Positions 38,186 through 48,003 of a stretch of 64,000 bases of DNA are shown one piece after another (position 1 is the stretch's first letter; each line of letters starts with the position of its first letter). Under the pieces are notes generated by a model. That model ran no database searches and was not told where the DNA came from. It worked only from the letters and a program-made list of their open reading frames with translations. The DNA lies in NCBI GenBank assembly GCA_902541365.1, contig CACBQK010000004.1, forward strand, positions 20,903-84,902, read 5' to 3'. This DNA comes from an uncultured SAR86 cluster bacterium. GTDB taxonomy: Bacteria > Pseudomonadota > Gammaproteobacteria > Magnimaribacterales > D2472. A program made the translations under genes and the position numbers.

Positions 38186-39480
38186 TAGTTTGTAAGGGAC
38201 CTTATTAAGTTTTTGTAATCCTCTTCAAGGGAACTGTTTTCTACCCTAAGTTCCTTTATTTTGTTGCATGCATGTATTACGGTTGTGTGATCTCTTCCAT
38301 TAAAGGCTTCACCAATTTCTGGCAGACTGTGATTTGTTAGTCTTTTTGTAAGCGACATTGCGAGCTGTCTTGGCCTGGTGATAGAGCGGCTTCTTCTTTT
38401 TGAAAGCAGGTCTGAAAGCTTAATATTGTAATATTCTGCAACAGTTTTTTGAATATTATCAATGCTAACCATTTTTGCGGATATAACAAATAAGTCTTTA
38501 AGAGCATCCTTAACTAAAGGAATATCTATTTCTTGGTTTGTAAATTTAGCGTTAGCGATAACTCGCTTTAAAGCTCCCTCGAGCTCTCTTATGTTTGATC
38601 TAATTCTCTGAGCTATATATATAGCGCACTCATTGGGTAGGTGACAACCCATCGAGGAAGCTTTGGCAAGCAATACTGCTGCTCTTGTTTCAAGTTCTGG
38701 TGGATCTATCACAACTGGCAGCCCCCAACCAAGTCTTGATTTTAATCTCTCTTCCAGGCCATCTATTTCTTTTGGATACTTGTCACAAGTGAGCACCATT
38801 TGATTATTTCTATCTAGTAGCGCATTAAAGGTATGGAAAAACTCTTCTTGTGATTGCTCTTTTCCTGCAAAAAATTGAATATCGTCAATTAAAAGAGCAT
38901 CAGCTGTCCTGTAGAAGTTTTTAAACTCATTAATTGCGTTTAGTTGAAGAGCTTTGACCATATCAGCAACAAATTTCTCTGAATGAACATATATCACTCT
39001 CTTTGATGGATCTTGATTAAGAATCTCATTTCCCACTGCGTGCATAAGGTGTGTTTTTCCCAAACCAACTCCGCCATATATAAATAGGGGATTGTAGTCA
39101 CCTGTCGGGTTTTGAGCAACCTGTTTTGAAGCTGCTAAAGCTAGATGATTCGATTTCCCCTCTACAAACGTATCAAAAACAAAAGACTCAACTAGGCCTG
39201 GGTTGTTTTTTCTTCTACTGGAGGGTTTTTCAACATATTTATCAACAAATGTTGAGTTATTCTTGTCTTTAAATATTATTTTTGTATCCTTGGAAGCTAA
39301 AACTTCATAAATTTGTTTTTTTAGATTATTTGTAACGTAATTTAGTACAAAATCATTTGGGGCGGAAATCTCTAATGAGTTTTCTTTAAACTCTCCTTGA
39401 AGAGGCCTTATCCAGGTATTAAACTCGTCTTGGCTGAGCTTTTTTTCAAGTTTTTTTGATATCTGGTTCCAGGTCTTCAA
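38185..39480 (-). CDS. dnaA: Chromosomal replication initiator DnaA
   Basis: [39 protein letters not shown]. Confidence 0.98.
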
Positions 39481-39549
39481 TTTCTATCCTCTTGGCTGTA
39501 GTCTAGCAAAAATTAACAAGATATCTACAGAATAACTAATAGTATTTCC

Positions 39550-39558
39550 TGTGGATAA
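39550..39558 (-). promoter_or_regulatory. DnaA box in the dnaA-rpmH intergenic region
   Basis: Perfect TTATCCACA on the minus strand (TGTGGATAA on plus); a degenerate copy TGTCAATAA follows at 39561. Confidence 0.8.
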
Positions 39559-39584
39559 CTTGTCAATAACTTTATCTTCTTTTT

Positions 39585-39615
39585 TTGACATAAATTTGTT
39601 TATTTTATGTATAAT
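39585..39615 (+). promoter_or_regulatory. sigma70-like promoter of rpmH
   Basis: TTGACA (39585) and TATAAT (39610), with a long 19-nt spacer. Confidence 0.45.
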
Positions 39616-39640
39616 GCATCTCTAATTTTTACTACCAACC

Positions 39641-44940: not shown

Positions 44941-45496
44941 CGACAAAATAGAGCTCTTTAAAGAAGAAACAATTAAGTTCAACAGGAAGCACAATCTAAT
45001 ATCAAGAAAAAACACAGAGAAAATAATAGATGAGGCAATCGAAGAAGCGACAGCTCTTACAAAACACCTAAAACAACATAAAAACATTTTAGATATAGGA
45101 ACAGGGAGCGGGCTCCCGGGCATACCTCTTGCAATTTTTAACGAAAATAAAAACGTATATTTATCTGAAAAAAACAACAAAAAAAACTATCATTTAAAAA
45201 AAACAATTAAGCTACTCGAAATAGAAAACGCAACAACCATCGGAAGCGCCAACAAAAACACAAAAATAAATAAAAAAGTAGATTGTGTTGTCACCAAGGC
45301 GTTTGCCTCTACAAAAAAAACAATAGATGTAGCTAATAGTTTTTTAGAAAAGCCTTTTACCCTAATGCTATTAAAAGGAAAGCTTAAAACCATCAACAAA
45401 GAGATTGCAGAAGCCAACATATCAAAAGAAAACTATGAAATAATAAAAATAGAAAACGAAAAAGAGAAACACATACTAAAAATACAAAATGAATAA
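44909..45496 (+). CDS. rsmG: 16S rRNA m7G527 methyltransferase (divergent, K/N-rich)
   Basis: LDIGTGSGLPGIPLA SAM motif; position between mnmG and parA. Start may be the ATG at 44930. Confidence 0.88.
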   Translation: MLKTEIEMSHSDKIELFKEETIKFNRKHNLISRKNTEKIIDEAIEEATALTKHLKQHKNILDIGTGSGLPGIPLAIFNENKNVYLSEKNNKKNYHLKKTIKLLEIENATTIGSANKNTKINKKVDCVVTKAFASTKKTIDVANSFLEKPFTLMLLKGKLKTINKEIAEANISKENYEIIKIENEKEKHILKIQNE

Positions 45497-46250
45497 AACC
45501 CTTGCCATTGCAAACCAAAAAGGAGGCGTAGGAAAAACAACAACAGCTGTAAACCTAGCTGCAAGTTTAGCAGCAACTGGCAGAAAAACCCTCTTGATCG
45601 ACATGGACCCACAAGGAAACGCCACATCCGCAGCAGGGGTTACAAAAAACGAGACAGATACCCTTTATGCAACCTATTTCGAAGGGAAAAACATCAAAAA
45701 TGTAATTAAAGAAAGTAGAGACGGTTATTCAATTGTTCCCGGGGGGCAGGAGCTAATTGCGCTTGATGTTGATATAAGAGATAACCACAAACAAGGCTTT
45801 CTCGCGTCACAACTTAACGATGTCCAAAACACATATGACTATACAATAATTGATACCCCGCCAACCTTAAACCAACTAACGACAGAAGCCTTGCTTTCAT
45901 CAGTAGGAACACTAATACCACTGCAGTGTGAGTATTATTCACTTGAGGGGCTAACGGACCTAATTAATACCATAAACGCACTATCATCCAAAACCAACAC
46001 CAACAACAGGGTGATTGGCATTATTAGAACAATGGTGGATATGAGAAACAATTTAGCAAAAGAGGTTTCGCGAGAGCTTGAGACACACTTCGAGAAAGTT
46101 TTATTTAATACACTAATACCAAGAAATGTTAAACTTGCTGAAGCTCCAAGCTTTGGAATTTCTGCGCTACAACACAAAGCAGATTCTTTTGGCGCAATGG
46201 CTTACCTAGCTCTAGCCGGTGAGCTAATTAGAAGAGTTGAAAATGAGTGA
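45489..46250 (+). CDS. parA: Chromosome partitioning ATPase ParA
   Basis: NQKGGVGKTT, DMDPQGN, QCEYY, IPRNVKLAEAPS. Confidence 0.96.
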   Translation: MNKTLAIANQKGGVGKTTTAVNLAASLAATGRKTLLIDMDPQGNATSAAGVTKNETDTLYATYFEGKNIKNVIKESRDGYSIVPGGQELIALDVDIRDNHKQGFLASQLNDVQNTYDYTIIDTPPTLNQLTTEALLSSVGTLIPLQCEYYSLEGLTDLINTINALSSKTNTNNRVIGIIRTMVDMRNNLAKEVSRELETHFEKVLFNTLIPRNVKLAEAPSFGISALQHKADSFGAMAYLALAGELIRRVENE

Positions 46251-47073
46251 TAACAAATCTTTAAACCGCGGACTTGATGCCCTCTTAGGCGATCAAAAAC
46301 TTACCACAACAACAAAAGAAATCGACCTAGAAAAAATAACAGCTGGAAGGTATCAACCGCGACAAGAGTTTGATGATGTGAAAATTCAAGAACTTGCTGG
46401 CTCAATCAAAAAACACGGAGTTTTATCTCCAATCTTGGTTCGAGAGGTTGGGCTTGATAAATTTGAGGTCATAGCTGGAGAGAGAAGAGTCAGAGCTTCA
46501 AAAATCGCAGGCTTAAAAACAATTCCCTCTCTTGTTAACCAAAAAGAAGATCAAGAAGCCCTTGAAGCCGCGCTTATTGAAAACCTGCAGAGAGAAGACT
46601 TAAACCCAGTTGAAGAAGCCAGGGGATATGACCGATTGAAAAGAGAGTTTGAACTAACGCAAGACGAAATTGCTAAAGCAACCGGTAAGGCAAGAAGCAC
46701 AATAGCAAACTCTATGAGAATACTTTCTTTATCGCCAAAAATATTAGATATGATTTCTCAAGGATCTTTAGAGAAGGGGCACGCAAAGATTCTCTCAGGC
46801 TTGGAGACCGCAAAATCAGAACAACTAGCAGAAGTAATTTCACAAAAAAGACTCACTGTGAGACAAGCTGAGGCATTACTAAAGCCAGTTAAAAAAACAA
46901 CAAAAACAAAAGAAAAAGATAGAGACACACTAAATATAGAAGATGAAATTAGCGAAAACTTTGGACACAAAACAGAAATAGACACAAAAACAACCAAGAC
47001 CGGTAAAGTATCAATTTTTTATCATTCACCAGATGAGTTGGAGACCATAATTCAAAAACTTCTTAAACTTTAG
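46237..47073 (+). CDS. parB: Chromosome partitioning protein ParB
   Basis: QPRQEF, AGERRVRA, ENLQREDLNPVEEA, HTH. Confidence 0.95.
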   Translation: MKMSDNKSLNRGLDALLGDQKLTTTTKEIDLEKITAGRYQPRQEFDDVKIQELAGSIKKHGVLSPILVREVGLDKFEVIAGERRVRASKIAGLKTIPSLVNQKEDQEALEAALIENLQREDLNPVEEARGYDRLKREFELTQDEIAKATGKARSTIANSMRILSLSPKILDMISQGSLEKGHAKILSGLETAKSEQLAEVISQKRLTVRQAEALLKPVKKTTKTKEKDRDTLNIEDEISENFGHKTEIDTKTTKTGKVSIFYHSPDELETIIQKLLKL

Positions 47074-47081
47074 AATTATCC

Positions 47082-48003
<922 letters not shown>

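Follow-up and report, generated by a model that had tools for sequence, protein, structure and literature searches.

A mirror-symmetric strand-composition domain centred on the probable replication origin of SAR86 bacteria

Strand skew is the standard computational signpost of bacterial replication origins and is read as a consequence of leading- and lagging-strand replication along whole replichores. In Escherichia coli the origin, oriC, adjoins gidA/mnmG. The SAR86 bacteria, which are among the most abundant bacterial groups of the surface ocean, are mostly uncultured and slow-growing. The asymmetry between the heavy and light strands of vertebrate mitochondrial DNA has been explained by the deamination of A and C in whichever strand is single-stranded during strand-displacement replication (PMC3269012), and in mismatch-repair-defective E. 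coli A:T transitions are favoured when the A lies on the lagging-strand template (bioRxiv 10.1101/346874). Here, we describe an origin-region window of 64,000 nucleotides (the whole stretch of DNA analysed; contig CACBQK010000004.1, positions 20,903 to 84,902) from a SAR86 single-cell genome assembly (GCA_902541365.1; 1.02 Mb in 34 contigs), in which strand composition flips within the spacer that separates mnmE from mnmG. The pattern is a lineage-specific, position-dependent and mirror-symmetric strand-composition domain which extends ~3.3 kb to each side of this spacer, with rpmH, rnpA, yidC and mnmE forming its left block and mnmG, rsmG, parA and parB its right block (Table 1).

An initial annotation of this DNA, based on hand counts, had proposed that the + strand switches from T/G-rich to A/C-rich at 43.0 kb. 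The counts are exact (A12 C6 G22 T20 at 41821-41880 and A35 C10 G8 T7 at 44521-44580), all block genes do lie on the + strand, and the switch is confirmed at four-fold degenerate sites. Over all sites, the AT skew of the + strand in 1-kb windows goes from ~-0.10/-0.18 (40-43 kb) to +0.26/+0.39 (43-47 kb), with a peak of +0.50 in 300-bp windows. The four-fold AT skew of the coding (+) strand is -0.27 in rnpA, -0.44 in yidC and -0.46 in mnmE to the left of the spacer, and +0.25 in mnmG, +0.51 in rsmG, +0.37 in parA and +0.20 in parB to its right; the corresponding GC skew is ~+0.05 (~0 to +0.4) in the left genes and -0.2 to -0.4 in the right genes. Set against the background of the genome (911 open reading frames; mean four-fold AT skew -0.065, standard deviation 0.13), yidC+mnmE (-0.45) is the lowest of all 472 same-strand two-gene windows, and mnmG+rsmG (+0.30) and parA+parB (+0.29) are the two highest. 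The strand-composition switch is real and far beyond chance. Its polarity on the + strand, from G/T-rich to A/C-rich, is the opposite of the canonical origin pattern, as had been claimed, and the effect is indeed local, the genome-wide difference in AT skew between leading and lagging strands being only ~0.06 compared with shifts of 0.3-0.4 at the locus.

The composition of the four-fold sites reveals a common signature on the two sides. Genome-wide, A, C, G and T make up.383,.111,.071 and.434 of these sites; on the + strand the corresponding values are.204,.135,.146 and.515 for the left block (AT skew ~-0.43) and.441,.202,.118 and.240 for the right block (~+0.30), so that the + strand is A-depleted and T/G-enriched on the left and T-depleted and A/C-enriched on the right. 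Measured against the coding-strand baseline on the left and the template-strand baseline on the right, the shift amounts to dA -0.18, dG +0.075, dT +0.08 and dC +0.024 on the + strand of the left block and to dA -0.19, dG +0.09, dT +0.06 and dC +0.047 on the - strand of the right block. On the affected strand of both sides purines change by -0.10, the loss of A is dominant, G and T are gained and C is not depleted. These mirror-image vectors imply that the same process acts on both sides upon the strand whose 3' end faces the spacer, namely the + strand in the left block and the - strand in the right block. The four-fold G+C content is 28-32% in the blocks against 18% in the genome. All-site G+C is also raised in both blocks (41300-42300 and 43100-46700), reaching up to 0.45 compared with a genome value of ~0.35.

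The profile of the skew along the domain was obtained by pooling ten genomes of the family. On the left it presents a plateau of -0.35 to -0.52 that runs from the spacer to -3.2 kb, with an abrupt return to baseline in dnaA; in the present genome the left block ends abruptly at the promoter side of rpmH, at 39.6 kb. On the right the pooled skew starts at -0.15 over the first 400 bp of mnmG, lies between +0.21 and +0.33 from +0.4 to +3.2 kb, and has returned to baseline by ~+4 kb. The fading of the bias toward the atp operon that had been noted by eye calls for qualification: in the pooled family the signal ends ~3.2-4 kb from the spacer, and in this genome a rather abrupt end is seen at the parB/atpB border (47.07-47.13 kb). 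The skew of this genome is strongest 1.5-2.5 kb from the spacer. The spacer has the same polarity as the blocks, with AT/GC skews of -0.20/+0.20, -0.13/+0.11 and +0.15/-0.10 in its left, middle and right thirds when 17 genomes are pooled.

The shift is bigger at synonymous than at non-synonymous positions, yet it reaches the proteins, as the initial annotation had supposed. Compared with other Gammaproteobacteria of similar G+C, the AT skew at codon positions 1+2 in the SAR86 family is displaced in MnmE (0.00 against +0.10), MnmG (+0.30 against +0.13), RsmG (+0.31 against +0.08) and ParA (+0.20 against +0.08), while the values for AtpA, AtpD and AtpB are essentially the same in both groups.

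Comparison with related genomes shows that the domain is both conserved and unique. In a complete single-contig relative from another genus (G011, 1.23 Mb; its assembly served only the skew statistics), the lowest pair of four-fold AT skews among the 560 genes with at least 100 four-fold sites belongs to mnmE (z -4.5) and yidC (z -4.3) and the highest pair to parA (z +4.4) and mnmG (z +3.5), and no second zone resembling the origin pattern was found elsewhere in this chromosome. The pattern is present within the genus (94-99% protein identity) and throughout most of the family (MnmG ~60% and MnmE 38-53% identical), in which most genomes have skews of -0.4 to -0.65 in yidC/mnmE and ~0 to +0.4 in mnmG-parA; the exceptions are the genera G017 and G018, with little or no switch. 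It is weaker in the other three SAR86 families, where the left block decays within yidC. Conservation over distances at which synonymous sites should be saturated points to a steady state and not to a relic. The difference in four-fold AT skew between mnmG and mnmE is +0.55 to +0.8 in most genomes of the SAR86 family and only -0.22 to +0.11 in the same-order controls among 40 other Gammaproteobacteria (dnaA on the - strand, followed by yidC, mnmE, mnmG, rsmG, parA, parB and atp).

A natural displacement of genes is provided by genome G006 (locus L037), in which a gene for an Old-Yellow-Enzyme-like flavin oxidoreductase separates mnmG from rsmG, as an insertion that spans +2.0 to +3.4 kb relative to the spacer. 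The inserted gene has an mnmG-like composition (four-fold AT skew +0.12, GC skew -0.48), and rsmG, parA and parB, which it has pushed out past +3.4 kb, have four-fold AT skews of -0.10 to -0.31. This one genome argues for an effect that follows distance from the spacer and not gene-specific selection. In the 6407-9032 region of the same locus parA is split into two overlapping open reading frames (6407-6808 and 6726-7169), suggestive of either a frameshift or a faulty assembly.

Several other sources of the skew can be rejected. It is no codon-context or amino-acid artefact: all eight four-fold families and nearly all next-base contexts shift, the skew expected from context is -0.11 on the left and -0.07 on the right, compared with the observed -0.43 and +0.30, and across the genome four-fold skew shows no correlation with position 1+2 skew (r = -0.05). 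Codon bias of highly expressed genes does not account for it either, since rpoB and rpoC have skews of ~-0.13 and most ribosomal-protein genes of -0.1 to -0.4, with a C-rich GC skew. A global inverted skew is likewise rejected, as the global effect is tiny in this genome and in G011. With leading and lagging classes assigned both by the local majority orientation and by the side of the origin on this contig, the pooled four-fold AT skew is -0.047 for leading and -0.106 for lagging genes (GC skew -0.240 and -0.167), and intergenic DNA has an AT skew of +0.03 and a GC skew of +0.08 on the leading strand; these values put the replication-linked component at ~0.03-0.04, against block shifts of 0.3-0.4. 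Nor is the domain part of a canonical replichore-wide skew: to the right of the spacer the + strand is A/C-rich, and the effect stops after ~3.3-4 kb. The findings that had been named beforehand as fatal to the proposal, namely no switch at four-fold sites, an inverted skew along whole replichores or a misassembled contig, did not emerge from the analysis.

The mnmE-mnmG spacer is quite probably the replication origin, judging from its sequence features and from the position of the locus in the complete chromosome. The 'DnaA-box cluster' proposed for it proves to consist of three 9-mers, at 42921, 42957 and 43058, each with one mismatch; they form the cluster of TTATCCACA-like 9-mers that is looked for in an oriC. 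One of them, TTATACACA, is presumably identical with the R2 box of E. coli. Of 17 SAR86 spacers, many have counterparts of these boxes in matching places, and those of G006 and G025 include perfect ones. Throughout the order an AT-rich element, CTAATAATAACAACAATAAATATATATAAT, is conserved directly beside mnmG; it could be an unwinding element, or equally the mnmG promoter. All 17 SAR86 genomes have a spacer of 190-250 bp at this place, and other Gammaproteobacteria with abutting mnmE and mnmG have gaps of mostly 14-150 bp, mostly without boxes. In G011, gene orientation and whole-sequence GC skew switch in this region, which would put the origin at this locus and the terminus near 600 kb. As in the gidA-adjacent oriC of E. 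coli, a short spacer directly upstream of mnmG contains box-like 9-mers and an AT-rich element at its mnmG end. The SAR86 spacer differs from that oriC in being only 208 bp long, in having three one-mismatch boxes and, in this genome, no perfect one, and in the replacement of mioC by mnmE; no cluster of GATC sites was noticed in it by eye, no scan having been made.

Table 1. Features of the origin region, in positions of the window.
Feature	Coordinates	Strand	Remarks
gyrB, recF, dnaN, dnaA	34081..39480	-	Left flank; from open reading frames, NCBIfam DnaA and DnaN, and composition
parS-like near-palindrome TGTTCCACGTGGAACT	36015..36030		Perfect 14-bp core GTTCCACGTGGAAC; gyrB/recF junction, 7 kb left of the mnmE-mnmG spacer
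dnaA-rpmH spacer	39481..39640		160 bp; sharp outer edge of the left block
DnaA box TGTGGATAA	39550..39558		Single perfect box in the dnaA-rpmH spacer (box scan)
Left block	39641..42911	+	rpmH 39641-39775, rnpA, yidC 40056-41591, mnmE 41592-42911
mnmE-mnmG spacer	42912..43119		208 bp; probable E. coli-type oriC; strand composition flips within it
DnaA-box-like 9-mer TGTTGATAA	42921..42929	-	Reverse orientation, just past the mnmE stop; one mismatch
DnaA-box-like 9-mer TTATACACA	42957..42965	+	One mismatch; accompanied by a T-tract
DnaA-box-like 9-mer TTATCAACA	43058..43066	+	One mismatch
AT-rich element CTAATAATAACAACAATAAATATATATAAT	~43080..43109		Candidate unwinding element or mnmG promoter
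Right block	43120..47073	+	mnmG 43120-44940, rsmG 44909-45496, parA 45489-46250, parB 46237-47073
atp operon	47131..53086	+	Right flank

The gene order of the region is the same in 19 of 19 SAR86 loci from four families. Both flanks of the domain are of ordinary composition, with coding-strand four-fold AT skews of -0.04 to +0.23 in gyrB-recF-dnaN-dnaA and of -0.05 to +0.14 in the atp operon, and the spacer between dnaA and rpmH contains, besides its DnaA box, a promoter-like site for dnaA (promoter scan). With the first in-frame start codon taken as the start of each gene, mnmG and rsmG overlap by 32 bp (44909-44940), rsmG and parA by 8 bp (45489-45496) and parA and parB by 14 bp (46237-46250); the right block would therefore be one tightly packed operon, if the called starts are correct. 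The parS-like palindrome at the gyrB/recF junction is the only one in the window and its consensus-scan score is not above chance (37 of 100 shuffles); at 36015 it is not positioned to mark a boundary of the blocks, and this candidate was rejected. Metagenome contigs diverge from the reference by ~4-5% over recF-dnaN-dnaA (35900-39700) and by ~1-2% over the skewed blocks and atp (39700-45700), which may reflect a difference in population diversity or which strain dominates.

The bases lost and retained on the affected strands can be set against the repair genes of these bacteria, which were surveyed in this genome and 30 SAR86 relatives. Among these 31 genomes no match was found to endonuclease V, which removes deaminated adenine, or to MutS, and the whole SAR86 order appears to lack both proteins; uracil-DNA glycosylase (Ung) has matches in 28 of the 31 genomes and Mfd, mostly full-length, in all of them. 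MutS was found in 16 of 17 control Gammaproteobacteria. This background fits a loss of A without a loss of C, as well as strand-specific errors that go uncorrected, but it does not account for the localisation of the bias. The MutS-less control G034 shows no clear mirror pattern, only a mildly A-rich mnmG-parB. Deamination of cytosine, which the initial annotation had listed among the possible causes, is unlikely to be the main driver, because A is lost from the affected strand and C is not, Ung is kept, and endonuclease V and MutS are absent. The interpretation offered there is thus partly supported: a local, origin-centred effect of reversed polarity is upheld, with a chemistry that is not mainly cytosine deamination.

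We favour, at about even chances, an origin-centred and strand-specific mutational footprint that is tied to the start of replication. The affected strands would then be the leading-strand templates of forks leaving the spacer; they are equally well described as the 3' tails that a spacer break would leave, or as the displaced strands of synthesis converging on it. The footprint might take two forms. In the first, leading-strand templates would stay single-stranded for long, so that deamination would convert adenine to G, and depurination would yield T once an A had been inserted opposite the abasic site. In the second, the enzyme that synthesises the first kilobases, perhaps a special polymerase, would have a distinct error spectrum. 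In SAR86, where MutS mismatch repair and endonuclease V appear to be missing, such mutational input would go uncorrected. A strand exposed in this way should be depleted in A and/or C and enriched in G/T at neutral sites, and the observed affected strands have A at -0.18 to -0.19 with C kept. The narrower reading, in which it is the leading-strand template that is exposed, we regard as tentative. Equally speculative, and on balance doubtful, is the corresponding picture of the origin, in which for ~3.3 kb on each side of oriC it would be the leading-strand template, and not its lagging-strand counterpart, that stays chronically single-stranded or is copied by another enzyme; a long-lived 6.5-kb initiation bubble or a D-loop-like intermediate in slow-growing cells is a possible form of it. 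If it is true, SAR86 would carry a mitochondrial-style mutational footprint strong enough to reshape YidC, MnmE, MnmG, RsmG and ParA.

A number of observations weigh against such a footprint, or against its placement at the spacer. In this genome the skew is weakest beside the spacer (-0.16 in the last 300 bp of mnmE, +0.05 in the first 300 bp of mnmG), and the profile consists of two plateaus with sharp outer edges and a softer central crossing, the opposite of what a model with exposure greatest at the origin predicts. Gene orientation switches at the dnaA-rpmH spacer (39.6 kb), 3.4 kb from the mnmE-mnmG spacer (43.0 kb), and an origin in the latter would place rpmH-rnpA-yidC-mnmE head-on to replication, which is unusual for essential genes. 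The unrelated gammaproteobacterium G145 (locus L105) shows no skew switch even though its 112-bp mnmE-mnmG gap contains three DnaA boxes, of which one is perfect; boxes in the spacer alone are therefore not enough for the effect. The absence of endonuclease V and MutS is order-wide and includes the families with a weak pattern, so it is not a sufficient cause. The A:T bias of mismatch-repair-defective E. coli implies G/T-rich leading strands, the reverse of SAR86 if forks leave the spacer. Finally, substitutions polarised among nine genus-level genomes did not show the process in action, in counts that are underpowered and distorted by parsimony's common-to-rare bias; their one suggestive signal is a T>C rate that is reduced, at 0.15 compared with 0.25-0.39, on the coding strand of the left block.

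The reversed polarity would become canonical if synthesis or exposure ran inward, in a process that converges on the spacer or starts from a break there. Double-strand breaks might recur there and be resected 5'-to-3' so as to leave 3' tails, or strand-displacement or repair synthesis might start from near 39.6 kb and ~46.5-47 kb and meet at the spacer. The affected strands are exactly the 3' tails of a break in the spacer, the sharp outer edges resemble starts and the gradual central zero crossing a meeting zone, and the polarity would then match that of mismatch-repair-defective E. coli, in which A and C mutate more on the lagging-strand template. Despite these attractions we consider an inward process unlikely. 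Synthesis that begins at two points, each 3.3 kb away from an origin, is not known from any process; if a central break were resected, the skew should peak beside the spacer, which it does not; and a break-associated element was not found. Although the gene content of G006 is different, its right edge remains at ~+3.4 kb, a constancy that makes a fixed promoter or site unlikely, and the gene orientation and whole-sequence GC skew of G011 indicate an origin here and not a terminus.

Selection might instead keep the strands near the origin compositionally distinct for a function, for example as A/C-rich helicase tracks on lagging-strand templates with few primase sites, through strand-specific binding of initiation or single-strand-binding proteins, or through properties of the mRNA. 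This would explain why the pattern has persisted over long divergence and why it is sharply bounded at roughly the scale of operons, and the affected strands are mildly enriched in G/T-rich pentamers, TGTTG and GTTGT among them. Beyond this mild enrichment, however, a search for weak DnaA-box arrays or another discrete strand-specific motif filling the blocks found none. The shift is larger at synonymous sites, runs through all codon families and most contexts and extends into spacer DNA; even the foreign gene inserted in G006 is A/C-shifted, and changes to conserved proteins are costly. Selection on RNA in particular conflicts with shift vectors that are equal and opposite although both mRNAs have + sense. 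We therefore judge a selective origin of the pattern to be improbable.

A link to transcription, by which R-loops or damage would expose the non-template strand of the rpmH operon and an antisense transcript over mnmG-parA would do likewise on the other strand, is less probable again. The left block would fit it well: it starts sharply at the rpmH promoter side, its coding strand is G/T-rich, the sign expected for damage to a non-template strand, and the operon is transcribed in metatranscriptomes. The right block is of opposite sign on a co-oriented operon, has no good antisense promoter at its outer edge and is not highly represented in rRNA-depleted or randomly primed libraries (X28 flat, X31 low). 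The genes with the highest transcription, rpoB/rpoC and those for ribosomal proteins, mostly have a weaker skew, with a GC skew that is C-rich and not G-rich, other lagging-strand genes average -0.12, and in G006 the effect tracks position and not operon. In two further metatranscriptomes (X25 and X27) the contig depth at 43400-45600, over rsmG and the 3' part of mnmG, exceeds that over the atp operon by a factor of 3-50, which probably reflects capture or internal priming of very A-rich mRNA and not high expression. That the pattern stems from a misassembled or chimeric contig, horizontally acquired blocks or gene-intrinsic composition is hardly credible, even for a 34-contig single-cell assembly whose two blocks differ in amino-acid usage, since more than 15 other SAR86 genomes, single-contig ones included, share the order and the pattern, metagenome contigs bridge the junctions (for example 42685-43181 across the mnmE-mnmG spacer), these are core genes whose order is conserved through the order and class, the pattern has outlasted presumably saturated synonymous divergence, and both the same-order orthologues of other Gammaproteobacteria, which lack it, and the G006 insertion speak against gene-intrinsic composition.

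If the footprint is mutational, the sequence itself would record which strands are at risk while the first kilobases are replicated, and it would make the mechanics of initiation testable in these largely uncultured, slow-growing cells, whether they involve helicase run-ahead, a delayed leading-strand start, another polymerase or recurrent breaks. The domain also shows how mutation pressure on a local scale can alter the amino-acid composition of essential proteins. Origin callers that rely on skew, and compositional tests for horizontal transfer, can be misled near origins.

Our literature searches found no description of this local pattern; new here are the quantification of the mirror shift, the test for uniqueness in a complete chromosome, the comparison with 40 other Gammaproteobacteria, the G006 insertion and the repair-gene background. 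The domain shares with replication-associated asymmetry (Lobry's rule; PMC3269012) the sign change at a probable origin, the mirror symmetry and the expression at synonymous sites. It differs in that the zone spans ~3.3 kb per side in place of whole replichores, in an amplitude several-fold (~5-10x) that of the leading/lagging effect of the same genome and, if forks leave the spacer, in an A/C-rich leading strand, opposite to the canonical G/T-rich one. Transcription-associated asymmetry, with its excess of G+T on the non-template strand, resembles the left block in sign and in its start at a promoter, unlike the right block, which has the opposite sign on a co-oriented operon, and the amplitude in SAR86 is above what most highly expressed genes show. 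As in mismatch-repair-defective E. coli and Pseudomonas aeruginosa (bioRxiv 10.1101/346874), a MutS-less lineage should show raw strand-specific errors, and two-fold strand biases could yield equilibrium skews of the size seen here; the biases of those bacteria are genome-wide, however, and of opposite sign if forks leave the spacer. Vertebrate mitochondrial DNA differs from the SAR86 locus, a two-sided domain of 6.5 kb in a bacterial chromosome with C kept and a plateau-like profile. The two nevertheless have in common A/C-rich and G/T-rich strands at four-fold sites, of comparable magnitude and with a major loss of A to G, as well as a proposed cause, the time that a strand spends single-stranded.

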